Position numbers and translations under genes: made by a program. This document shows, piece after piece, positions 3,149-30,670 of a stretch of 32,000 nucleotides of DNA. Each line of letters starts with the position of its first letter. The stretch's first letter is position 1. The notes under the pieces are model-generated. The model searched no databases. It saw only the letters and a program-made list of their open reading frames with translations, and was not told the DNA's origin. Source of the DNA: an archaeon (lineage in GTDB: Archaea; Asgardarchaeota; Thorarchaeia; Thorarchaeales; Thorarchaeaceae). The DNA lies in contig JAJRZD010000016.1 in the NCBI GenBank assembly GCA_024275415.1, forward strand, positions 1-32,000, given 5' to 3'.

Positions 3149-3682
3149 ATGAGAATCGAGGTTCGGATTGCCGGGACTGGTGGGATGGGTGCTGTATTGG
3201 CTGGAGTCGTCCTTGGGCATGCTGCGGTGAAGGCAGGGTTGAACGCTGTGCAGAGCCAGAGCTACGGGTCTGAGGCGAGGGGCACGGCTGCCAAGAGTGA
3301 GGTTATCATTAGTGATGGCGACATCCATTACCCAAAGGTCCGCAAATCTGACATTCTTGTCGCGATGAGCCAGAAGGCATTAGACTTGTATCTATCTGAT
3401 GCAAAGGGCGGGAGCACAGTCATCATCGATCCCGACCTTGTGGATGCAACAAGTGTGAGCGGGGATTTCATAGTACAGACCGTCCCTGCGATGAGGACTG
3501 CAGATAAGATAGGGTTGAGGCTTGTGTCGAACATGGTCATGCTTGGCGCCATCATAAAGAATGTTGGCACGATTCCTGACGAGGCTCTTGAAGCAGCTGT
3601 CAAGGCATCTGTTCCAGCACGGTATCTCGATATCAATATGAATGCAATTCATGTCGGGGCTGAGTTCATTCAACCCCCATGA
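3149..3682 (+). CDS. korC: 2-oxoacid:ferredoxin oxidoreductase gamma subunit (KorC-like)
   Basis: IRIAGTGGMG, QSYGSEARG, NMVMLGA. Starts 4 nt after korB. Confidence 0.88.
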   Translation: MRIEVRIAGTGGMGAVLAGVVLGHAAVKAGLNAVQSQSYGSEARGTAAKSEVIISDGDIHYPKVRKSDILVAMSQKALDLYLSDAKGGSTVIIDPDLVDATSVSGDFIVQTVPAMRTADKIGLRLVSNMVMLGAIIKNVGTIPDEALEAAVKASVPARYLDINMNAIHVGAEFIQPP

Positions 3683-7461: not shown

Positions 7462-8358
7462 ATGGAGATCAATGGCGTCCCCATCGAGGACACGTTCGCT
7501 GAAGCTTTTAGCATGCACATGAACCGTACCCTGATAACAGCGTATGACGAGGAATGGGCCCGCATAACGGCAATGGAAACGACAGGATTCGGGACTTCTG
7601 TCATCATGACCCCGTCCGAAGCAGGCATCGAGTATGTCCTATCGCCCGATGAAACCCCTGATGGACGACCCGGTGTACGTGTGATATTTGCTACAGCAAA
7701 ATCGGACAAACTCGAGAAACAACTTCTTGCACGGATCGGTCAATGCATCCTTACCAGTCCCACTGCCTGCGCATATGATGCAACTCCGAAACCCAAGGAA
7801 ACCTACAAGATTGGGAAACTCATCGCTATGTTCGGCGACGGACACCAGATAAAGAAGGGGCCTATTGACGGCCGTATCCTGTGGCTGGTCCCGCGCATGA
7901 GCGGCACCTTCGTTGTCCAAGAGAGCTTTGGGCGTACAAAAGGAGTTGCCGGCGGGAATATAATTTACTGCTGCAAAGATATCCAGAGCGGAATGGAGAG
8001 TGGCAAGGCTGCCGTCAAGGCGATTGAGAAGGTGGAAGGTGCCTATACACCCTTCCCCGGTGGACTGGTAGGCTCAGGATCGAAACCGTCTTCACGGTAT
8101 AAGGGTATGTTCGCATCCACGAATGAACGCTATTGTCCGACACTCAGGGCAATCACACCCGATACGCTGGTTCCCGAAGGTGCTGAGTTCGTCCAAGAAA
8201 TCGTCATCAACGGGCTGACTGAGGATGCAGTCGCTGAAGCAATGAAAGTGGCAATCCAAGAAGTCTGCAAGCATGATGGCATCCTCACCGTAGGCGCTGG
8301 CAACTATGGCGGGAAACTGGGCAAGTATCAGATCCACCTGCACGAACTGGGTCTCTAG
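7462..8358 (+). CDS. ftr: Formylmethanofuran:tetrahydromethanopterin N-formyltransferase
   Basis: MEINGVPIEDTFAEAF, TGFGTSVIM, TPDGRPG, RIGQCILT.PT, GVAGGN, GNYGGKLG. GGTGA SD upstream. Confidence 0.95.
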   Translation: MEINGVPIEDTFAEAFSMHMNRTLITAYDEEWARITAMETTGFGTSVIMTPSEAGIEYVLSPDETPDGRPGVRVIFATAKSDKLEKQLLARIGQCILTSPTACAYDATPKPKETYKIGKLIAMFGDGHQIKKGPIDGRILWLVPRMSGTFVVQESFGRTKGVAGGNIIYCCKDIQSGMESGKAAVKAIEKVEGAYTPFPGGLVGSGSKPSSRYKGMFASTNERYCPTLRAITPDTLVPEGAEFVQEIVINGLTEDAVAEAMKVAIQEVCKHDGILTVGAGNYGGKLGKYQIHLHELGL

Positions 8359-8419: not shown

Positions 8420-8497
8420 GCCCCTGTAGCTCAGACCGGTTAGACCGCCTCCTTGGTAAGGAGGAAGCCGCGGGTTCAAATCCCGCCAGGGGCTCCA
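8420..8497 (+). tRNA. tRNA-Thr(GGT)
   Basis: Cloverleaf read by hand: acceptor GCCCCTG/CAGGGGC, anticodon arm CCTCC-TTGGTAA-GGAGG (GGT at 8455-8457), T arm GCGGG-TTCAAAT-CCCGC, U73, encoded CCA. Confidence 0.95.
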
Positions 8498-8657
8498 TCG
8501 AGCTTTCTTCTTCGAGTTGCTTCAGACTGATCTGTAGATTCCTATTCTAGGAGCTTATCACTAGATTCTCGTGACTAATAATCGGATTAGATATATCACT
8601 GAGCATGGGATAAATAAAGATGCGTCCATTTTATAGCAACTGATAATTCTCAGGACT

Positions 8658-10982
8658 GTGGGTTTGGTGGGAAACAATCTTGAAACACGGATTCGTGAAG
8701 ACGAATACGAGTCAATGGTGGAACCTGAAAAGAAAAAACTGACCCAAGACGAGATCGAGGAAATTTTCAAGGATGCTACAGACGATTTTTCCGTGTCAGG
8801 ATCTAGTTGCCATATCCTCGGTGACCCAGTTGCAGACTCGGGAGAAGCCAAGGGACATTGTGAAACTTCTTTGCCAAGATTAATTGACAGTTGTGAGAAA
8901 TTCGAACAAGTCCTGAGAATCATCCCCTCTGAAATGCGGCTCAAAAGGGGTTTTGAGAAAAAACTTCGAGATGTTAGAGCCTATTTTAAGAGTAGCATGA
9001 AAGGAGAAATTCCATCATTTATTATCGAGTTAGAGGAGCGATTAATCCGCGCCCTCTATGAGGTGATTCATAGTGGTCCTCCAGAGGTTCAGATCCATTC
9101 AATGAGAGAGGTTCGCGAACTACTAACAAAATATCCCAGAGAAAAAGAGGAAGAAGAATTCAGTGAACGATACAGAAAATCCAGTATCTACTTCAAGGTT
9201 CGAAAAAACAAAACTCACTCCCAAAACGAACTTGCCAAAATTCACGGTATCATTCAAGGGAGAATAAGTGACTTCAAGGCAGGGAAAGAACCAACCTTGA
9301 TTTCTCGGCTACGTCGATATGAGGAAGAAAAAATAATCAGAAAGTGGACGGAAGTAGAACTCGATCGGTTCCAATATAATGAGCTGCTGACTATTCTACG
9401 GAAGCATCAATGTTATAATTTCGGTGAAGTAGCCGTATTGAGAAAGAACACATTGCAAGGAGCCTATGAAGTTACTCCAACGACCTTCCATCTAATGAAT
9501 GAAGATGTCGGCTTTGAGCATATTGAATCCCAGATGTTTTCATCCATTGTATTTACGATGTTGCAAGAACTGGACAAGACCAATTCTAGGATTGTTTATC
9601 TTGATTATGGTAATAATCACTCTGCTTGGCACTCATTACCAGATGAGATGCACAATAAAATTCGGGACGTTATAGAGAATTCAATAAAAGAGAAGACCCA
9701 GATTGCACCCCTCGCTGATAACATCCGAGTTGGTATTGTGGATTGCCGACTGTATATTTGGAATCCCGACAAATCGCCAAATAAAATGATAAACGCTTGG
9801 AGCAATCAGTTCTTCCATTTCACACCAAGTGATCTTTCAGATATCATTCTCGAAACAGGAAAGCAACTGCAACTGAAATGCAGCGGCTATGAACAATTGC
9901 GTCATCTAAACAAACTTGTTAAACAAGTCATTTCCAACAAGGCATCAGATAGGATCCGAGTTGGTGATAAAGGTTCCAGAATCTTAGGTGAGGTACTCCA
10001 TCTAATCTGTGACATCTTAGGGATATCACCAAGGTCTATTGAAGGAACGATTGAAGCTGTTACTGGCAGAAACGGGCGAGGCGGTATTACTCGTCCTAAA
10101 TTACTAGAAGGAATGGAATTGGAGGTTCTTCGCGCAAGACTTGGTGCAATTGTCAATAGCGATTGTTGGTTGGGGCGGAGCGGGCGATTACAATATTCCG
10201 AATCTGATAGAGGGAGAATTAGAATTGTGACAAAATTATTACAGTGCTTTGGAGAGATGTCACCCAAATTGATATCAAATGACGCTAATCGGAGCCTTCG
10301 GATGTGGATACCAATACCGATGGGAAATGCTTTCATCTACTGGGGTTTTACTTCCGGCGAGAAACCACTTCAAAATGAACATCTTCCCAGACTTGTCAAA
10401 GAGAGTTCCCATGAATCACATATTGCTTATCTAGAGGAATTGATTTCAGAAGACGGGTGCTTTGACCATGTGTCAGGTTTCAGATGGAGTCGAACTATCG
10501 TTCTGAAGCCGGGTAAGGATAATGCAAGTTATAATCTCGAATCGGATCTGTGTCAGGCTGATATTGCGTTCCTAATGAATCTCAAATATGCACGATGGGA
10601 AACAAAGAGAGGCCACATCTATATTCCAATAGGTAAGCTATCTGAGCACTCGAAGCATTTAACCGGTCAGGACTTAAGCATCACGAGTCGTATTCTTTCG
10701 GTTGTCCTGACAAATCGAAGTAGACTATTGGATGATGAGGTATCTCTTGCAACTGGGCTAGGGATCACTATAGAAGTATATCCTGAGTGCATAACTATCT
10801 ACACGAAGACAGGTAGAGTCTCTTTAAAGTGGATAGCAAAAACAAAACGAAAAGAAGATGCGATTCGATGGGCGCTTATTGCACTGCCAAATGACGAACG
10901 GAAGCGGGAACGTGTTCGGAAATGGCTTGCGTTGGTTGCAAAAGATGTTGAAAGAATACAGTTCCCATTCTGGCCTGAATAA
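8658..10982 (+). CDS. Large protein with XRE-like HTH and double LAGLIDADG (DOD-type) endonuclease-like domain; no intein splicing motifs
   Basis: HTH SQNELAKIHGIIQGRISDFKAG (~9219-9284). LAGLIDADG-like motifs LGAIVNSDC (10140-10166) and LEELISEDG (10431-10457) are 97 aa apart, with the intein-endonuclease-like linker GEKPLQNEHLPRLV..S.E..IAYL. Start codon uncertain. Confidence 0.7.
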   Translation: MGLVGNNLETRIREDEYESMVEPEKKKLTQDEIEEIFKDATDDFSVSGSSCHILGDPVADSGEAKGHCETSLPRLIDSCEKFEQVLRIIPSEMRLKRGFEKKLRDVRAYFKSSMKGEIPSFIIELEERLIRALYEVIHSGPPEVQIHSMREVRELLTKYPREKEEEEFSERYRKSSIYFKVRKNKTHSQNELAKIHGIIQGRISDFKAGKEPTLISRLRRYEEEKIIRKWTEVELDRFQYNELLTILRKHQCYNFGEVAVLRKNTLQGAYEVTPTTFHLMNEDVGFEHIESQMFSSIVFTMLQELDKTNSRIVYLDYGNNHSAWHSLPDEMHNKIRDVIENSIKEKTQIAPLADNIRVGIVDCRLYIWNPDKSPNKMINAWSNQFFHFTPSDLSDIILETGKQLQLKCSGYEQLRHLNKLVKQVISNKASDRIRVGDKGSRILGEVLHLICDILGISPRSIEGTIEAVTGRNGRGGITRPKLLEGMELEVLRARLGAIVNSDCWLGRSGRLQYSESDRGRIRIVTKLLQCFGEMSPKLISNDANRSLRMWIPIPMGNAFIYWGFTSGEKPLQNEHLPRLVKESSHESHIAYLEELISEDGCFDHVSGFRWSRTIVLKPGKDNASYNLESDLCQADIAFLMNLKYARWETKRGHIYIPIGKLSEHSKHLTGQDLSITSRILSVVLTNRSRLLDDEVSLATGLGITIEVYPECITIYTKTGRVSLKWIAKTKRKEDAIRWALIALPNDERKRERVRKWLALVAKDVERIQFPFWPE

Positions 10983-11167
10983 ATCAAGTATGACTTGAAT
11001 CTTGAAAAGAGTAGCTGGAATTTTGGATATCGTAAACGAGAATTTCATTACAATCAATATGAAATATTCTCTCCTATTGCGAAGCGATGCCAAGGGGCAT
11101 TTCAAATCAAATTCCTCTGGCAACTGGTTCTCTACTAGTATTCCTTTGTTTCAGTAGAATATTCAGA

Positions 11168-11392
11168 TCATATTATGCATGAATTGAAGACCTTTCCTAG
11201 AATATACTCTAACGGCCAAAATCCTACAATCAAAGAATTACGCACTGTTCGTAATTGGCTTTGTGGAAAATATGGTTTCCCTAGTTCAATTTCCTCGGGG
11301 TTTCCACTTTCTACTTCTTGCTTAAGATTGGAATCCCTTATCATCGTAAAAAAAAGAAGTAACTCTCTCCCAAGATATAATCCGGTAGTCAT
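11168..11392 (-). pseudogene. Possible decayed ORF remnant within island
   Basis: Short open fragments interrupted by stops in an AT-rich region. No recognisable family. Confidence 0.2.
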
Positions 11393-11442
11393 CGTCAGTC
11401 ATATTTACGCCTTAGTTCAATTAGAGCCATTATTCCTATGAT

Positions 11443-12064
11443 TCAAATCGCTGAGGTAATGGTGACGGTTTCTGTTCTATTAATCCCACCTGAGAATTCC
11501 CTTACACTGAAATCAACAACCAATTCACTTACAAAATCATCCTTTGGGATCCTCTCAGAGGTAAGGTTGAATGTCCATAAGATCCGAAACTGTTGTGGTT
11601 CTTCTCCTCCCGTGATATGACTATAGCTTGAATTCATTAGCCAATATTGCATCATTATGAATCCTGGTGATTCATCATGTTTTCGCATCCATGCATGTGA
11701 AATGCCTTTGCCCTATGGATTCAAAAGCAACCGATTCGTTAATAGCGTAGTGACCATTTCCTAAATAATATCTAGGTATTAATTTGAAAGAAATGTTTTG
11801 ATGAGCATATATTCTTGTATAGTTCATCTGAAACGAAAAAAGAAACCAGAATGAATCGTTTGTTTCGGAAAAAGTGATATCAAATTTCCCAAATGTAATG
11901 TTCTCAATGATTCGAATTGAACTGCTATTTCTACATTCAATAGTGAAATGATAGTTAATATCAGTGTATTGCGATTGAACGAAGAAAAAGGTGAAGACTG
12001 TACTAATAGTTAGGAGAATGATGATAACAATTGCAGTTATCTTCGGTCGAACTGGAACTGACAT
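11443..12064 (-). pseudogene. Frameshifted membrane-anchored, N-glycosylated surface protein
   Basis: Overlapping ORFs 11675-12064 (N-terminal TM anchor) and 11443-11688. Deleting one base of the CCC run at 11711-11713 fuses them (..ESIGKGISHAWMRKHDESPG..). Nine N-x-S/T sequons. Confidence 0.5.
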
Positions 12065-12428
12065 CTATCTCCCTCTCCGATGTTCTAGGCATGCCACACC
12101 ACATAAAGGTCATATTATCTCTTTTTGGTTACGGTAGGAGGGAGATGGAAGTTTCATAAAAAACAAGAAGGCTGTTCAATTTCTACTCTGCATCATGGCA
12201 ATGATACTATTGCTACAAGGATACAACTCAGACATTGGATTTTTGTCTTTACTCGCTCTACGATATTCCTTTTGGTTCTAGCAAAATCTTGATTTTGTGA
12301 ATACCATGCAGGTATGGTCCAGTGAGTGATAATCAAGGCACATCATGAACCGGAACCTTCCTGTTCATTGACATGTGTTCTTCCTATTTTGTTCTCATTT
12401 TCATCTACACTTTTGATGTCAGATAGTA

Positions 12429-12462
12429 TCAAACCCCGCCAGGGTCTCCATCGTGTTTTCTT
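12429..12462 (+). repeat. Degenerate duplicate of tRNA-Thr 3' end and downstream T-tract (attR-like)
   Basis: TCAAACCCCGCCAGGGTCTCCATCGTGTTTTCTT versus TCAAATCCCGCCAGGGGCTCCATCGAGCTTTCTT at 8476-8509. Confidence 0.8.
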
Positions 12463-12495
12463 TTCAGAGGTGTATATCATAATCGAGTGATGCTT

Positions 12496-12723
12496 TCACC
12501 AGCCCATCTGTCGTCTTCGCGACATGGCTTCTGCGTACTCTTGTGATTCTCCGTCGAAGTACATGTTCTCTTCGACAATAGACTGATGTATCTTCTCGCC
12601 AATCCTCCTTCTACCTACCTTGTATGAATGATGCGTTCCATGCTCAGTTCTCTTATCGCGGCTGAACAGGACTGCTAATAGGATCACGCCGCCAAACAGT
12701 ATGAACAGGTATATCCCTAACAT
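12496..12723 (-). CDS. Small single-pass membrane protein, hypothetical
   Basis: N-terminal hydrophobic helix. The ATG at 12723 is preceded by GGAGTG. Confidence 0.55.
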   Translation of the reverse strand: MLGIYLFILFGGVILLAVLFSRDKRTEHGTHHSYKVGRRRIGEKIHQSIVEENMYFDGESQEYAEAMSRRRQMGW

Positions 12724-12945
12724 GGGATCACACTCCACGTGTTCTTTGTAGTGCATCCTTATTTGGTTTTGCAATTAGATACTTTGCACACAAACATCCG
12801 TGGTACTCGTTAAGTACCACCTAGGCGGAGTCCCATTTTGAAGTATCAGAAAAATGGGCACAATGTGACATCTGTAGCGCAGGCTGCGTTGGCTGATGCG
12901 TTACCAAGTGCAGAGTCATCGATATGTCGTCTTGTAATCCTTGGG

Positions 12946-13434
12946 CTATTCTGCCCCCACCCAGTCAGGGGACAAACGCAACCTACAGACCAGTTCTTTT
13001 CCATGAGTGTATTTCTCATCAGAATCAAGATATTCTTGTAGTTTCTCGATGAAAAGTTTCATCGTAGAGGGATTCACGCTGATGCCGACCTCGAAACCAT
13101 CGAGAATGAACGGCTCGTTATCCATTGCATCCAACCCTATGCGAACCACAAGTTGATCCAGCCATCGGATGGTCGCACCGTGTTCTTTCCCGTATGTTAC
13201 ATGATCAAAGTCCGTAGGGGGATTGCACTTGTATTTCTTGGTTCCCTTACCATAGATTTGGAAGACATCTAGCAGTCGTTGAAGGCTATCTTTTATCGTC
13301 TGTAGCGACTCATCGTCTCCCATAATATAGACTTCATCTCTCCACTTGCCGCTCTGTTCGTCCTTGACCTGCCAGATTTGGAAATTCAGGTCATCAAACA
13401 CTTTCTTGTCCGTGCTGGAAGTCATATCATTCAT
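12946..13434 (-). CDS. Hypothetical protein
   Basis: Globular-looking ORF, third gene of a tightly spaced minus-strand run. AGAGGA precedes the ATG at 13434 (or 13425). Confidence 0.65.
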   Translation of the reverse strand: MNDMTSSTDKKVFDDLNFQIWQVKDEQSGKWRDEVYIMGDDESLQTIKDSLQRLLDVFQIYGKGTKKYKCNPPTDFDHVTYGKEHGATIRWLDQLVVRIGLDAMDNEPFILDGFEVGISVNPSTMKLFIEKLQEYLDSDEKYTHGKELVCRLRLSPDWVGAE

Positions 13435-13494
13435 TCCTCTCTTTGCTGAAATGAGAATGTTCCTGCGATACCTTATGTCTGAAAGGTCATCCAC

Positions 13495-25654: not shown

Positions 25655-27682
25655 TTAGATACCTCCACCCTCTCTTTTCTTGACTTTGAGCATTCTAGCG
25701 TTGATAGCAACTATTACTGTGCTCACAGACATCAAAACTGCTCCCATCGCAGGACTGAGGAGGATTCCCGCAGAATACAGGACTCCTGCTGCAAGCGGGA
25801 TGGCTGCCGCATTATAGCCAGTTGCCCAAATAAGGTTCTGAACCATCTTACTGTAGGTCGCGCGTGACAACCCTAGAATAGAAACAGCATCCAAAGGATC
25901 ATTGCGTACTAGTATTATGTCCGCTGTTTCGATAGCGACATCTGTGCCTGCACCAATTGCAATCCCAATATCTGCTTGTGCCAGAGCTGGTGCATCATTG
26001 ATGCCATCACCCACCATTGCAACAGTCAATCCTCGACTCTGTATCTCCCTTATCTTCTCTGATTTCTCATGTGGCAATACTTCTGCAAAGTAGTCATCTA
26101 ACTCTAATTCTTCTGCCACCCATTTTGCCACGTATCGATTGTCACCTGTGAGCATCATACTTTTGATTCCCATCTTCCTTAGCTGTGCAATTGCTTCCTT
26201 GGATTCCTGACGAATGACATCTGCTAATGCTAAAGCCCCAACAAGATTGTCATCAACAATAACATAAACAACTGTATGTCCTTTTTCGGCAAGGTCGGTC
26301 AGATGTGCTAGGTCTGGAAGGATACCCTTTTCCTCCAAGTATCCCGGACTGACAACGAACACACTATGAGATCCAACTTTGCCTGTGGCACCTTTTCCTG
26401 GGATTGCCTGAAACTCATCAGCTGACTGGAATGTGACTCCTCTTTCTTGGGCTCCCCTGACAACCCCGCGAGCAATCGGATGCTCTGACTGGGTTTCCAA
26501 TGATGCCGCAAGCTCCAACACCTTTTCAGATGACATCTCTCCTAATGTGACGACTTCCGTGACTGAGAATTGTCCTTCTGTCAGTGTGCCTGTCTTGTCA
26601 AATACAATTGCTTGCAACCCCCTTGCCCTCTCGAAAGCGGCTCTATCCCTTATCAACAGTCCATTTGTGGCAGAAATCGAAGTTGATACAGAAACGACAA
26701 GTGGCACAGCCAGACCTAATGCGTGTGGACATGCGATGACCATAACAGTTACAGCGCGTTCCATTCCGAACTGCAACCCTTGTCCAACGGCAAGCCACGT
26801 TGTCAGGGTGATCGACCCCGCAAGAAGAGCTATGATTGTTAAGAGGAATGCTGCTCGATTAGCCAAGTCCTGCGTTCTTGATCGACTCTCCTGAGCCTCA
26901 CGCACAAGATTGATCACTTGTGCTAGGAACGTTTCCTCTCCTGTCTTCTTGATCTCAGTGACAACGCTCCCATCCCCGTTAATCGCACCTCCAATAACAG
27001 GATCACCTACTTTTCTGTTTACAGGCTGTGACTCCCCTGTTATCATTGACTCGTCCATACTTGTAATACCTTTTACAATCTCTCCGTCAGACGGTACCCT
27101 CTCTCCTGGTTTGATTAGCACCTTATCCCCAACTTTCAACTCAGAAGTATCAACATCGATGGTTGTCCCATCCTCTTGGACAAGATGAGCTACTGTTGGC
27201 AACAGTTTCACAAGTTCTTCTAATGCACGTGATGCACCCATCACCGAACGCATTTCGACCCAGTGTCCCAACAGCATGATGTCAATCAATGTCACCAGTT
27301 CCCAAAAGAACATAGAGCCCTCAAGACCAAATGCTACAGCGCTACTATAGAAATATGCCACTGAGATTGCTATCGCTATGAGTGTCATCATTCCAAGTAG
27401 GCGTTTTCGAAATTCCTCGACCATCCCCTTTAGGAATGGATATCCGCCGTACAGATATACGCTGGTCGAAAAGGCAAAGAGCACAAATATATCACCTTCA
27501 AAGGCCAGAAAGTCCAATCCAAGAAGTGTTCGAACGAGTGGAGAAAGAACAATTACAGGTGGCGTAAGGATCATTGATACGATAAATCGCTTCCGAAAGT
27601 CCTGTGCCATCATCTCATGGTGACTGCTCTTTTTTCCGTGATGTCCGTGTTTCATGGACATTTTATGTTCACTATGTTCCAA
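25655..27682 (-). CDS. copB: Copper-exporting P1B-3 ATPase (CopB type)
   Basis: His/Met-rich N-terminus, CPH motif (ACPHALG), FDKTGT, SEHP, GDGIND, YN, MSVST. TTG start after GGAGG. Confidence 0.92.
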   Translation of the reverse strand: MEHSEHKMSMKHGHHGKKSSHHEMMAQDFRKRFIVSMILTPPVIVLSPLVRTLLGLDFLAFEGDIFVLFAFSTSVYLYGGYPFLKGMVEEFRKRLLGMMTLIAIAISVAYFYSSAVAFGLEGSMFFWELVTLIDIMLLGHWVEMRSVMGASRALEELVKLLPTVAHLVQEDGTTIDVDTSELKVGDKVLIKPGERVPSDGEIVKGITSMDESMITGESQPVNRKVGDPVIGGAINGDGSVVTEIKKTGEETFLAQVINLVREAQESRSRTQDLANRAAFLLTIIALLAGSITLTTWLAVGQGLQFGMERAVTVMVIACPHALGLAVPLVVSVSTSISATNGLLIRDRAAFERARGLQAIVFDKTGTLTEGQFSVTEVVTLGEMSSEKVLELAASLETQSEHPIARGVVRGAQERGVTFQSADEFQAIPGKGATGKVGSHSVFVVSPGYLEEKGILPDLAHLTDLAEKGHTVVYVIVDDNLVGALALADVIRQESKEAIAQLRKMGIKSMMLTGDNRYVAKWVAEELELDDYFAEVLPHEKSEKIREIQSRGLTVAMVGDGINDAPALAQADIGIAIGAGTDVAIETADIILVRNDPLDAVSILGLSRATYSKMVQNLIWATGYNAAAIPLAAGVLYSAGILLSPAMGAVLMSVSTVIVAINARMLKVKKREGGGI

Positions 27683-27686
27683 ACTC

Positions 27687-27869
27687 TCATCCTCCCAACA
27701 ATCTGTGAATCATATATCCTCTGGAATCGTTCTCCTCAATGTGAACGGGGATCTTGTGGATATCCCTGCTCATACGATAGAATCTCACGGGAGTCTTTTC
27801 ACTGGATATCATCTCAGAACACGCTCGAATCCGTGCATTCAATTCTAACCACTGGAATAGACCAACCAT
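27687..27869 (-). CDS. Possible small ORF or leader upstream of copB
   Basis: The start lies ~33 nt downstream of TATAAATA (27902-27909, minus strand) and the stop is 5 nt from the copB start. No recognisable domain. Confidence 0.3.
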   Translation of the reverse strand: MVGLFQWLELNARIRACSEMISSEKTPVRFYRMSRDIHKIPVHIEENDSRGYMIHRLLGG

Positions 27870-27885
27870 CTTCTATCAGAATCGA

Positions 27886-27903
27886 TATATCCGTATGGAT
27901 GTA
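27886..27903. promoter_or_regulatory. Candidate operator related to 18275-18292
   Basis: TATATCCG-TA-TGGATGTA, adjacent to a minus-strand TATA box upstream of the copB operon. Confidence 0.4.
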
Positions 27904-28001
27904 TTTATAGGTATTGGTTTACCTTGTATTCCATAGTCATCATATGTTATAAATGGTGATTATAGGCTGTCAAGATTCAAAGAACGATTGTTAGACTCAA
28001 G

Positions 28002-28250
28002 GTGATGGTTATGACTAAGACAAGAAATGCACTGCTCAATATCTTATGGGGTGCCGGTTATGTTGCACGGGGTGAGAAACGACTGGGTTACGGACTTCTC
28101 GCTTCCTTACCTTTTCTCCATTGGCCCATACTAAGTGGTAATTGGTTATTGTATCTTACTTATCCATTCAACATTGCATTCATAGGGCATCTGATTATTA
28201 CAGCTGCTTTCGTGATCGATGCTTATTACAGACCAATTTCAAGTGAGTAG
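28002..28250 (+). CDS. Small membrane protein, hypothetical
   Basis: Two to three hydrophobic segments. Confidence 0.55.
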   Translation: MMVMTKTRNALLNILWGAGYVARGEKRLGYGLLASLPFLHWPILSGNWLLYLTYPFNIAFIGHLIITAAFVIDAYYRPISSE

Positions 28251-28273
28251 CAGAAAGGAGGCCGGATACAAAA

Positions 28274-28507
28274 ATGGGATGCGGACCAAAAATAGGCAGA
28301 CGACGTATCAAGAAATCCAAGAGGAAAAGCAAAGTTTCAGGAAGTAGCACTCAAGAAACAACTCTTATTATTCCACGAATCCCTCAAATTTGTTCTAATT
28401 GCAAAGCTAAGATACAAGCTGACTCTGTAAAGTGGACGGGACCTGACAGCTTCGAATGTCCCTATTGTGGTTTCACACTACTAGTAGATTTTGAGAAAAT
28501 CGCATAG
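28274..28507 (+). CDS. Small basic zinc-ribbon protein
   Basis: Lys/Arg-rich N-terminus and CSNC-x16-CPYC. Confidence 0.55.
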   Translation: MGCGPKIGRRRIKKSKRKSKVSGSSTQETTLIIPRIPQICSNCKAKIQADSVKWTGPDSFECPYCGFTLLVDFEKIA

Positions 28508-28623
28508 ATTGCCACGACACTCTATGGGATATTCTCTCTCGGTGATTGGCTCCATTTGTGCTAACTCTTTTGGAAATCATGCCATTCAGGTGGACTAACA
28601 ATGAAACATGACCGATTCGTCAT

Positions 28624-28950
28624 ATGATGATTTCGGCATATAAAACAAATCCTCCTCTGTTATTCTTCAAAGGACTTGCGAACGATACACGCCTTGCCAT
28701 CATTCAGGTTCTGAAAAACGGGCCTAAACCCGTCGGTGAGATATGCGAAACGCTTGGTTTTGAGCAGAACCGTGTTTCTCATAACCTGAGATGTCTTGAA
28801 TTTTGCGGGTTCGTTTCAAGTGAGAGGACTGGAAAGAAGAGGATTTACTCCCTTAACGATGAAACAATCGCGCCATTGATGCAGATTGTTGACAATCACA
28901 TCAAAACATACGGACAAAACCTGATGCAATGCAAAGTCCTCAGGAGATAA
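28624..28950 (+). CDS. ArsR/SmtB-family metal-sensing repressor (CmtR-like alpha4C site)
   Basis: FKGLANDTRLAII..L, VSHNLRCLEFCGFV, RIYSL, C-terminal Cys (QCK). Confidence 0.9.
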   Translation: MMISAYKTNPPLLFFKGLANDTRLAIIQVLKNGPKPVGEICETLGFEQNRVSHNLRCLEFCGFVSSERTGKKRIYSLNDETIAPLMQIVDNHIKTYGQNLMQCKVLRR

Positions 28951-28978
28951 AAATCGAACACGATTGGGTGATAATAAG

Positions 28979-30670
28979 ATGAATGAGCAAAAAAAGAGAA
29001 CCGAAGTCCGTCTTTCTGTAGAAGGAATGACCTGTGACAGCTGTGCAACTCATGTTAAAAGTGCACTGGAGAGCATTGATGAAGTCAAGATGGTCGAGAT
29101 TCCAAGTTGGAAGGACGGCTATGCCAAAGTGCTTGTCGAGGGCGATATTGACGAAAAAGAGCTTGAGGGTGTTGTGGATAAGACAGGCTACAAAGCTAAG
29201 GTCGAAGTCAAGCACGAATTCCTGTCCAGCCTGATTCTGCCTGTCGAACCAAAAGCAACAGGATTTGACGTCGTCGTAATCGGAACCGGCGGTGCAGGAG
29301 TCGCATCCGCCATCAAAGCGGCTGAGTTGGGTTACACAGTAGCGCTTGTTGAAAGGGGTGAGATTGGAGGGACATGCGTGAACATAGGATGCGTTCCATC
29401 AAAGACCCTGATTAGAGCGGCAGGGATTCACCACTCAGCGAAGGATAACCCTTTCAAGGGAACCAATACCAGTGCAGGACAGATCCAATGGAAACAGCTC
29501 GTCCAACAGAAAAACGAATTAGTTTCTCAACTTCGCAAAGAGAAGTATATCGATATCATTGCCCAGTATCCTGATAATATCACACTGTTAAGGGGTCATG
29601 CTCGGTTAACTAAGGATAATCATGTCATACTGGATGATGGCACGAAGATAGAACCATCTAGAATCATCATAGCTACCGGTGCAAGACCGAGAATACTACA
29701 GATTGACGGCGCATCTAGCGAAACCGTCCTAACAAGTACAACCCTTATGGATCTTGAAGAGCTCCCTAAGTCATTGATAATTATCGGTGGTAGATCTATC
29801 GCCCTTGAGTTGGGCCAGACGCTATCACGTTTCGGTACTAAGGTCACAATCCTTCAGCGTAGTGACAGCATCATTCCGGACAAGGAGCCAGAGATCATAG
29901 ACGCACTAACAGCCTATCTGAAAGATGAGGGAATTGATATAGTGACTGGTGTTAAGATAGTGTCAATATCCGATGGTGCTCAGAAGACCGTAGAAGTACA
30001 GATTGGTGGTGCCACTAAAGAATATCAATCTGAGCACATCCTAATGGCTGTAGGGCGTGTCCCGAATACCGACAACATGGGTCTCTCCGAAGTAGGAGTG
30101 GAGTTGGATACACACGGATTCATCATTGTTAACTCTCAGATGGGAACAACCAACCCCTCTATCTTCGCCGCAGGCGATGTCACAACTCTCCCCAAGTTCG
30201 TTTATGTCGCAGCTGCATCAGGTGGCATTGCTACTGAGAATGCCTTGAAAGGAACAAAGAACGAAATGGATTTGACCACAATGCCTGCAATAATCTTCAC
30301 TTCTCCTCAGGTGGCCACGGTGGGGATGACCGAATCGATGGCAAAGGAGGCAGGGTACGATGTGTCAACAAGCGTCCTCCCATTGAAATATGTCCCTCGA
30401 GCATTGGCTGCCCACGATGTACGGGGACTCATCAAACTTGTAGCTGATAGTAGATCTAACCGCCTGCTTGGTGCACATGTGCTGGCTGAAGAAGCAGGAG
30501 AGATAATACCGATCGCAGCAATGGCAATCCTTATGGGACGCAAGTTTAACTTCACGGTTTCAGATCTCCAGCAGATGCTCTTCCCCTACCTTGTCCAGGC
30601 CGAGGGAATCAAGCTTGCAGCACTAGCATTTGATAAGGATATATCCAAACTATCTTGTTGTGCTGGATAA
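28979..30670 (+). CDS. merA: Mercuric reductase with N-terminal NmerA/HMA domain
   Basis: GMTCDSC HMA, GTGGAG FAD motif, GGTCVNIGCVPSK redox disulfide, C-terminal SCCAG vicinal cysteines. The ATG at 28979 follows GGGTGA. Confidence 0.95.
   Translation: MNEQKKRTEVRLSVEGMTCDSCATHVKSALESIDEVKMVEIPSWKDGYAKVLVEGDIDEKELEGVVDKTGYKAKVEVKHEFLSSLILPVEPKATGFDVVVIGTGGAGVASAIKAAELGYTVALVERGEIGGTCVNIGCVPSKTLIRAAGIHHSAKDNPFKGTNTSAGQIQWKQLVQQKNELVSQLRKEKYIDIIAQYPDNITLLRGHARLTKDNHVILDDGTKIEPSRIIIATGARPRILQIDGASSETVLTSTTLMDLEELPKSLIIIGGRSIALELGQTLSRFGTKVTILQRSDSIIPDKEPEIIDALTAYLKDEGIDIVTGVKIVSISDGAQKTVEVQIGGATKEYQSEHILMAVGRVPNTDNMGLSEVGVELDTHGFIIVNSQMGTTNPSIFAAGDVTTLPKFVYVAAASGGIATENALKGTKNEMDLTTMPAIIFTSPQVATVGMTESMAKEAGYDVSTSVLPLKYVPRALAAHDVRGLIKLVADSRSNRLLGAHVLAEEAGEIIPIAAMAILMGRKFNFTVSDLQQMLFPYLVQAEGIKLAALAFDKDISKLSCCAG

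Follow-up and report, generated by a model that had tools for sequence, protein, structure and literature searches.

The DNA examined here, referred to below as the window, is a stretch of 32,000 nucleotides (nt) from a Thorarchaeaceae archaeon (GCA_024275415.1, contig JAJRZD010000016.1, positions 1 to 32,000). We found that it contains a real and old insertion of 3.95 kb at the 3′ end of a tRNA-Thr(GGU) gene, in which the only large intact open reading frame (ORF), P0001, encodes a protein of 774 amino acids (aa) with the predicted fold of a homing endonuclease. In our judgement there is about an even chance that this island is an old element of the mORF type described from fungal mitochondria, that is, a homing-endonuclease element that brings along a tRNA 3′ end of its own. 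Genomes, contigs and loci are given below as G, C and L numbers: the genome of the window is G000 (3.5 Mb) and its contig C118, and G001, G003, G004, G005, and G006 are congeners.

The island and its insertion site

The target gene is an intact tRNA-Thr(GGU) with an encoded CCA (8420-8497, + strand), which was identified by ARAGORN and by Rfam (RF00005, 61.5 bits) and is the sole tRNA that ARAGORN called in the window. Its 3′ end is present twice as a direct repeat on the + strand. The proximal, attL-like copy (8476-8519) lies within the working tRNA and comprises the T-loop, the 3′ strands of the T-stem and the acceptor stem, the CCA, and 22 nt of trailer; the distal, attR-like copy (12429-12472) is a displaced, decaying tRNA 3′ end, in which one change would mispair the acceptor stem. 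Separated by 3,953 nt, the two copies agree at 36 of 44 positions (82%), including 30 of the first 34, and the repeated span runs from the T-loop through the CCA and on into 12-22 nt of T-rich trailer. The earlier note on this DNA had described a 34-nt direct repeat (30/34) from the T-loop through the CCA into a T-tract, and both the repeat search and the shuffles agree with it: no other match to the 34-mer in the window exceeds 21/34, which is also the highest score among 200 shuffles. Across the whole 3.5-Mb genome, the tRNA part of the repeat has one further match only, the 3′ end of another tRNA on C123. Within the island, no third, internal copy that would split it into two units was found (best 15/22).

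The island also differs from its surroundings in composition. Its GC content is 39.8%, compared to 51.0% in the 4 kb on its left, 47.1% in the 4 kb on its right, and 47.0% in the genome; along the contig, GC runs at 0.52-0.55 just left of the tRNA, at 0.35-0.43 inside the island, and at 0.44-0.47 directly after the second repeat copy. The tetranucleotide distance between island and genome is 0.292, versus 0.173 ± 0.038 for 170 control windows, of which 1.2% are as extreme. The GC values bear out the AT-richer interior that had previously been noticed by eye. The island DNA is single-copy in the genome. Elsewhere in the window, a second GC dip was observed at 27501-29000 (0.41-0.42, against about 0.47-0.50 around it).

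Both flanks of the island consist of host genes, with mch, a GXGXG-domain gene, and ftr on the left and genes for proteins of 92, 182, and 122 aa and an alpha-amylase on the right. The ftr gene, which encodes formylmethanofuran-tetrahydromethanopterin formyltransferase (7462-8358, + strand; Pfam FTR and FTR_C, E 1e-52 to 1e-58; NCBIfam PRK02114, E 3e-118), is syntenic in G003, G004, G005, G006, and L005. The right flank (12496-13494, − strand), comprising the 92-aa gene (12496-12774) and the 182-aa gene (12946-13494), was recognized by synteny, the 182-aa gene being found in G001, G003, G005, and G006 and the 92-aa gene in G005. The earlier note had proposed looking in relatives for an empty allele with a single repeat copy, and G006 has one (L020): ftr is followed there by tRNA-Thr, 427 nt, and then the homologue of the 182-aa gene, with one copy of the repeat.

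The tRNA-Thr 3′ end is an insertion hotspot within the genus. In G001, the tRNA-Thr is followed, as in the window, by a homologue of the large gene (55% identity), but the neighbourhood is rearranged. In G003, the same tRNA carries a different unit of 1.4 kb, which holds an SBF-family transporter gene and has a 22-nt repeat of this tRNA segment at its borders; the repeats of G000 and G003 begin at the identical base, in the first T-loop residues. The site in G004 holds an ICMT-like methyltransferase gene, and the contig of G005 breaks at this point.

Inside the island, P0001 occupies 8658-10982 (+ strand) and is whole, as the earlier note had said of its one intact large gene. Between the tRNA and P0001 lies an 18-nt motif (8545-8562, + strand) that stands at the same place in the orthologous locus of G001; it has one match in the window at three or fewer mismatches, where 0.04 would be expected by chance, and it is a possible promoter or operator. 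Downstream of P0001, the AT-rich tail (10983-12428, 35-39% GC) lacks long ORFs. One of its short frames is a 129-aa ORF (11675-12064, − strand) that has a hydrophobic N-terminus and no Pfam match. Weak relatives of this ORF lie within frames of 234-281 aa in G006 (31% identity, E 1e-13), and it is possibly a truncated gene for a membrane or secreted protein. The tail, 1.45 kb with short ORFs only, had been described as decayed cargo; given the G006 relatives of the 129-aa ORF, this description is correct for the most part but not entirely. When genes that adjoin homologues of P0001 elsewhere (those for 338-aa and 318-aa proteins, an ATPase, and others) were compared with the tail, chance-level matches only were found.

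The 82% identity of its repeats and the decay of its tail mark the window copy as old, and for these two reasons it is probably no longer mobile. P0001 and its orthologue in G001 are both intact, and their 55% identity is near the 60-67% seen for neighbouring host proteins.

A six-frame search of the genome with PF00589 gave no tyrosine-recombinase match on the window contig; the matches lie on C119, C116, C43, and C127 only and include two good proteins; the two integrases of the genome are those on C119 and C116. A tblastn search of the island for integrase remnants, using the three integrase-like ORFs of the genome, reached an E value of 0.6 at best. By PF00589 and tblastn, no site-specific recombinase is present in the island, and no profile search was made for serine recombinases or transposases. 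The label "integrase-free", which the earlier note had attached to the island together with a proposal for the tblastn check, has therefore held, in that neither an integrase nor a fragment of one was recovered. An SSV-type split integrase, as an alternative identity for the large gene, was rejected because the ORF does not reach the repeats: its stop-to-stop frame of 781 codons starts well past 8519, and the gene is whole. The reading of the island as a giant tRNA intron with an intron-encoded endonuclease does not hold either, since the island is preceded by a complete tRNA and an acceptor stem formed with the distal copy would contain a mispair.

The genome has a second integrase-free tRNA island. 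At C82 (4969-7576), a tRNA intron and 3′ half are exactly duplicated around 2.4 kb that hold only a TnpB-like (IS605 OrfB-type) gene; the "tRNA-Thr with a 2.5-kb intron" that ARAGORN reports there when introns are allowed is an artefact of this duplication around the TnpB gene. A stretch of 62 nt just 3′ of the P0001 orthologue in G001 (L006/L025, C180, 4524-4585) is 93.5% identical to part of the same C82 insert and is probably the remnant of an insertion-sequence end or of a guide RNA.

The large protein and its family

P0001 consists of an N-terminal helical region with helix-turn-helix (HTH) features, a middle alpha/beta domain, and a C-terminal double-LAGLIDADG domain, as judged from the ORF, AlphaFold models, and fold matches. 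Sequence profiles say little about it. P0001 has no Pfam family (E up to 0.1), no NCBIfam family, and no matching PADLOC model; its family profile has no true match among PDB sequences, and no relatives were found in virus contig, plasmid, and phage collections. Residues 154-221 have weak HTH-type matches in PHROGs and NCBIfam. A model of residues 330-774, built on 45 relatives, has a pLDDT of 93.3 and a pTM of 0.91 (AlphaFold), and its closest folds are PI-PfuI (Z 18.3, rmsd 2.6 Å over 187 aligned residues), the TliVMA intein endonuclease (Z 18.1), I-Tsp061I (Z 17.4), and I-DmoI (Z 15.4); the non-catalytic protein WhiA scores Z 16.6. Foldseek matches the model to PI-SceI (E 3.5e-6, probability 1.0), and relatives in the AlphaFold DB carry the automatic name "DOD-type homing endonuclease".

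The double-LAGLIDADG fold is encoded by 10113-10964 (+ strand; residues about 486-769), as delimited by VIA-align and the family alignment. Motif 1 (...SDC) ends in D502, which is Asp in 44/45 family members, and motif 2 (...EDG) ends in D599, a position that is Asp in 38/45 and Glu in 7/45, with Gly next in 43/45. The acidic residue that ends each LAGLIDADG helix is thus kept in the family, unlike in WhiA. Alignments to the intein enzymes reach past the nuclease core into the middle domain (model residues about 44-156). The N-terminal 345 residues are helical (model pLDDT 77), with a sigma-region-4/LuxR-like HTH as the only type of match (best Z 4.7) and no recombinase fold among the fold matches of this model. 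The membership of P0001 among LAGLIDADG proteins is read from its modelled fold and its motifs, and curated sequence profiles do not match it; on this reading, its C-terminus is by fold a monomeric, two-motif LAGLIDADG endonuclease with both catalytic acidic residues present.

In these respects, P0001 resembles PI-SceI, PI-PfuI, I-DmoI, and I-Tsp061I, which share the monomeric two-motif fold and both catalytic acids. Unlike those enzymes, it lies in neither an intron nor an intein, shows no splicing motifs, lacks a sequence-level match in Pfam or PDB, and has an N-terminal HTH region added. The HO endonuclease of yeast is a free-standing enzyme derived from an intein, and P0001 is likewise free-standing.

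The family of P0001 comprises 305 clusters at 50% identity, in which conservation extends over about 430 C-terminal residues; the N-termini vary and often bear an HTH. It is present in 51/87 genomes of the order, with about 150 copies or fragments, many of them truncated, interrupted by stops, or at contig ends, and the number of copies within one genus varies from 0 to 7-8. This is the distribution of a selfish element.

We surveyed the neighbourhoods of about 47 family loci. About 16 of them lie within 800 nt of a stable-RNA gene, where a rough estimate gives about 1 expected; the count is a lower bound because intron-rich tRNAs escape ARAGORN and Rfam. At distances of at most 250 nt, the RNA gene is tRNA-Thr (the window, L006, and L005), tRNA-Ala(GGC) (L026, L027, and L028), tRNA-Pro (L030), tRNA-Phe (L033), tRNA-Lys(CTT) (L048 and L063), or 5S rRNA (L055 and L075); within 800 nt, tRNA-Asn (L032, L049, and L068) and another tRNA-Lys (L043) are added. 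In every RNA-adjacent case, the family gene is the first gene beside the RNA gene, in either orientation, and in L027 its stop codon ends at the base that adjoins the CCA end of the tRNA-Ala. The tree of the nuclease domain contains a tRNA-Thr-linked clade (support 97/88), a Lys/Asn-linked clade, and a 5S/Phe-linked clade.

Repeats of the tRNA 3′ end bound family-gene units at three other tRNAs as well. The unit at tRNA-Ala (L027) measures 9.9 kb, and the unit at tRNA-Pro (L030) measures 3.0 kb, its family gene being broken by a stop. At tRNA-Phe (L033), the family gene alone fills a 2.4-kb unit, behind which come four further units, with one gene or none, that each close with a copy of the repeat. 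Throughout this array (G003:C2, 3990-9745), the tRNA-Phe 3′ end occurs six times in the same orientation on the − strand, with starts at 9590, 7197, 5749, 5269, 4403, and 3990, and the units hold the LAGLIDADG-family gene, a leucine-rich repeat (LRR) protein, a 129-aa ORF, a nitroreductase, and, in an empty unit, 390 nt, with no integrase.

Several other loci are described here as observations. At L055 (G100:C110) and L075 (G084:C14), family members end 70-120 nt 5′ of a 5S rRNA gene and are co-oriented with it, and rRNA genes may also be targets of the family. At L048 (G046:C269), the family gene is enclosed by a 71-nt inverted repeat (1332-1402 and 3511-3581, 86% identity) composed of the tRNA-Lys promoter region and the initial 31 nt of the tRNA; this repeat could be the footprint of an inversion or of an insertion on the 5′ side. 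Solitary fragments of the tRNA-Thr 5′ end (positions 1 to about 31) were seen in L001 (14421-14445 and 16282-16313), where the two lie near a HEPN-like gene and an LRR gene, and in L005 (11966-11998), where the fragment stands beside ftr and adjoins the stop of the family gene, with 7 nt between ORF end and fragment.

In 13/24 loci, a gene for a HerA/TraG-like ATPase of 850-1,030 aa stands directly 5′ of the family gene. The ATPase was identified by PADLOC HerA models (E down to 2e-15) and by a weak TraG P-loop match (E 2e-5). It is absent from the window copy, from the G001 orthologue, and from the copies at tRNA-Phe and tRNA-Pro, and no homologue of it occurs anywhere in the window. Adjacency to RNA genes is seen in family members both with and without the ATPase. 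The neighbours of family loci also include weak AbiTii and HEPN matches. A second family member in G000 (L031, C10, 8371-15195) encodes 1,243 aa, is 30% identical to P0001, and lies directly 3′ of a 1,027-aa HerA-like ATPase gene; no tRNA was found within 8 kb of it. The pairing resembles HerA-effector pairs (HerA-NurA, SIR2-HerA, and DUF4297-HerA) in that the HerA-like ATPase gene is directly 5′ of a nuclease gene in about half of the loci. It differs from them in that the window copy lacks the ATPase, the LAGLIDADG type is in no PADLOC model, and the position at the edge of RNA genes is foreign to those systems.

How the island may have arisen

The earlier note had offered the choice between an island remnant whose integrase is gone and an element that another mechanism moved, for example endonuclease-triggered recombination. 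It had named two findings that would speak against its reading, relatives with no empty allele and fragments of an integrase. Neither was borne out: G006 has the empty allele, and the PF00589 and tblastn searches recovered no integrase fragment. The family-wide context favours the second option.

In fungal mitochondria, mORFs consist of the 5′ part of a host gene, an inserted 3′ end, a free-standing and mostly LAGLIDADG ORF, and the displaced native 3′ end, with examples in atp6 of Allomyces macrogynus and in atp6, atp9, cox2, and nad3 of Glomus (PMC3630166). Their endonuclease cuts alleles without the ORF, and repair copies the ORF together with its portable 3′ end; for Allomyces, biochemical proof that the endonuclease drives mobility is reported (PMC3630166). 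The island has the same order of parts, with the tRNA and the first repeat copy (8420-8497), the ORF (8658-10982), and the second copy (12429-12472), and it too lacks an integrase. Unlike in mORFs, the host gene is a tRNA gene in an archaeal chromosome rather than a mitochondrial gene for a protein. The nuclease is also far larger than theirs, with its 774 aa, HTH region, and intein-like extra domain; its family is often paired with the HerA-like ATPase, and its cleavage is predicted.

We infer that P0001 cuts DNA, what it cuts, and that it moved the island, and the course of events would be as follows. The proposed engine is the 774-aa protein, with its HTH region and its PI-SceI/HO-like double-LAGLIDADG nuclease in which both catalytic aspartates are present. 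The nuclease would recognize element-free tRNA-Thr genes and cleave them at the junction of T-stem and T-loop or close to it; in the repair of the break from an occupied allele, the nuclease gene would then be copied along with the tRNA 3′ end that it carries. The tRNA would remain functional, and the old 3′ end would be pushed downstream. The same logic would explain why the tRNA is intact, why no integrase is needed, why the nuclease gene stands at the edge of the RNA gene, and why clades track their targets.

Several observations weigh against this mORF-type origin. The two repeat copies in G000 look equally native, sharing the lineage-specific CCCGC strand of the T-stem and the trailer, whereas a mORF would be expected to leave a distal copy closer to relatives; at the tRNA-Thr island of G003, the distal copy, unlike the proximal one, is G006-like. 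Tyrosine integrases that use the T-loop sublocation also leave, as their classic footprint, a direct repeat that starts in the T-loop and ends shortly beyond the 3′ end. Nuclease-free cassettes are bounded by the same kind of repeat, both in the SBF transporter island of G003 and in the tRNA-Phe array. Two deep clades of the family have no RNA-gene neighbour. Finally, the pairing with the ATPase suggests, in place of a simple homing endonuclease, a machine of two genes that serves defence or DNA transfer.

The leading alternative, which we regard as unlikely though clearly worth keeping in view, is an ordinary tRNA island whose tyrosine or other recombinase was lost or acted in trans. The LAGLIDADG protein would then be cargo, an orphan of the HerA module that is perhaps anti-viral. 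The geometry of the repeat, from T-loop to 3′ end with trailer, fits classical att sites. Integrase-borne tRNA islands, including the tycheposons of Prochlorococcus, share with the island an intact tRNA with displaced partial tRNA repeats, a T-loop boundary, foreign composition, and an empty site, and tycheposon islands, in which partial tRNAs and degraded elements are known to accrete in tandem, also share the stacking of several units behind one tRNA that is seen here at tRNA-Phe (bioRxiv 10.1101/2020.12.28.424599). Also in favour are the ATPase pairing in 13/24 loci, the weak AbiTii and HEPN neighbours, the nuclease-free cassettes with the same repeats, and the two good PF00589 proteins that the genome has elsewhere. 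The evidence on the other side begins with the integrase itself, of which neither gene nor remnant was found in the island or on the contigs that hold the other repeat-flanked family members. In addition, 13 tyrosine-recombinase loci in five of these genomes were inspected, and the surrounding 4 kb or so contained neither a tRNA nor a piece of one at any of them. G003, which is 74% complete, has no PF00589 match at all, yet it carries repeat-bounded islands at two tRNAs. P0001, for its part, matches no PADLOC model, and cargo would not be expected to stand always at the edge of an RNA gene, nor to cluster by target on its own tree.

A further possibility, to which we give only a small probability, is that the ATPase and the LAGLIDADG protein form the core of a new integrative and perhaps transferable element, in which the nuclease replaces the integrase and of which the window copy is a reduced form with the nuclease only. 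The pair does stand at the tRNA-proximal end of larger islands, as in the 9.9 kb between the tRNA-Ala repeats of L027; the L027 ORF ends beside the CCA end of its tRNA and the L005 ORF beside the tRNA-Thr 5′ fragment; and the ATPase has its weak TraG P-loop match. Set against this, neither a circular form nor transfer genes were seen, the virus and plasmid collections gave no match, and many family members stand alone. Rejoining of DNA is also not known from any LAGLIDADG enzyme.

An origin of the repeat by chance or by duplication on the spot, with native DNA in the AT-rich stretch, is ruled out for practical purposes by the shuffles and by the empty site in G006, since the modest 82% identity of the repeats is all that speaks for it, while the repeat matches the GC step on both sides and the same pattern recurs at other tRNAs.

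tRNA introns, gene capture, and significance

Under the mORF-type reading, the place of the presumed cut can be compared with the introns of the target genes. The tRNA-Thr(GGU) genes of G004 (L022, C77, 3810-3921) and G003 (L021, C138, 4716-4830), both of which ARAGORN misses, have introns of 30-33 nt between T-stem and T-loop. The tRNA-Thr of G000 has no intron, and the island junction coincides with the intron position of G003 and G004 within one base. At tRNA-Phe (L033) and tRNA-Pro (L030), the repeated segment starts at, or at most 3 nt from, the 3′ end of a T-arm intron. We count the match of intron and junction as one independent coincidence, with a chance of roughly 1 in 25 by a rough estimate. 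That introns shield the tRNA genes of archaea from invading elements has long been suggested. Were the nuclease to cleave the T-stem/T-loop junction, an intron there would destroy the cut site and protect the tRNA gene. Asgard tRNA genes are heavily interrupted, and the origin of their introns has been left open (bioRxiv 10.64898/2026.10.13.758758).

More tentatively, and we would not call it probable, the nuclease family, with or without the HerA-like ATPase, may be an engine of integrase-free gene capture. Each clade would cut its own tRNA or 5S gene and install itself and, in trans, single-gene cassettes behind a fresh 3′ end, thereby building integron-like arrays. Islands at tRNA genes, LAGLIDADG endonucleases, and mORF-type elements are each known separately; in the literature searched, we did not find a chromosomal, tRNA-targeted, integrase-free archaeal island with a large HTH-LAGLIDADG protein as its hallmark gene, and the family of P0001 is without a curated profile.

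If the gene is cargo, the island is an ordinary decayed one with an orphan of an undescribed HerA-LAGLIDADG pair, which would be unannotated biology of narrower interest. If the nuclease is instead the mobility gene, the island would represent a homing-endonuclease route to chromosomal islands at archaeal tRNA genes, by which genes are acquired and stacked without an integrase, and this route would sit in the lineage closest to eukaryotes. It would explain why island finders based on integrases miss such regions, and the enzymes would provide a new group of meganucleases that have long targets and an additional HTH module. It would also tie the intron-rich tRNA genes of the Asgard archaea to pressure from site-specific nucleases.

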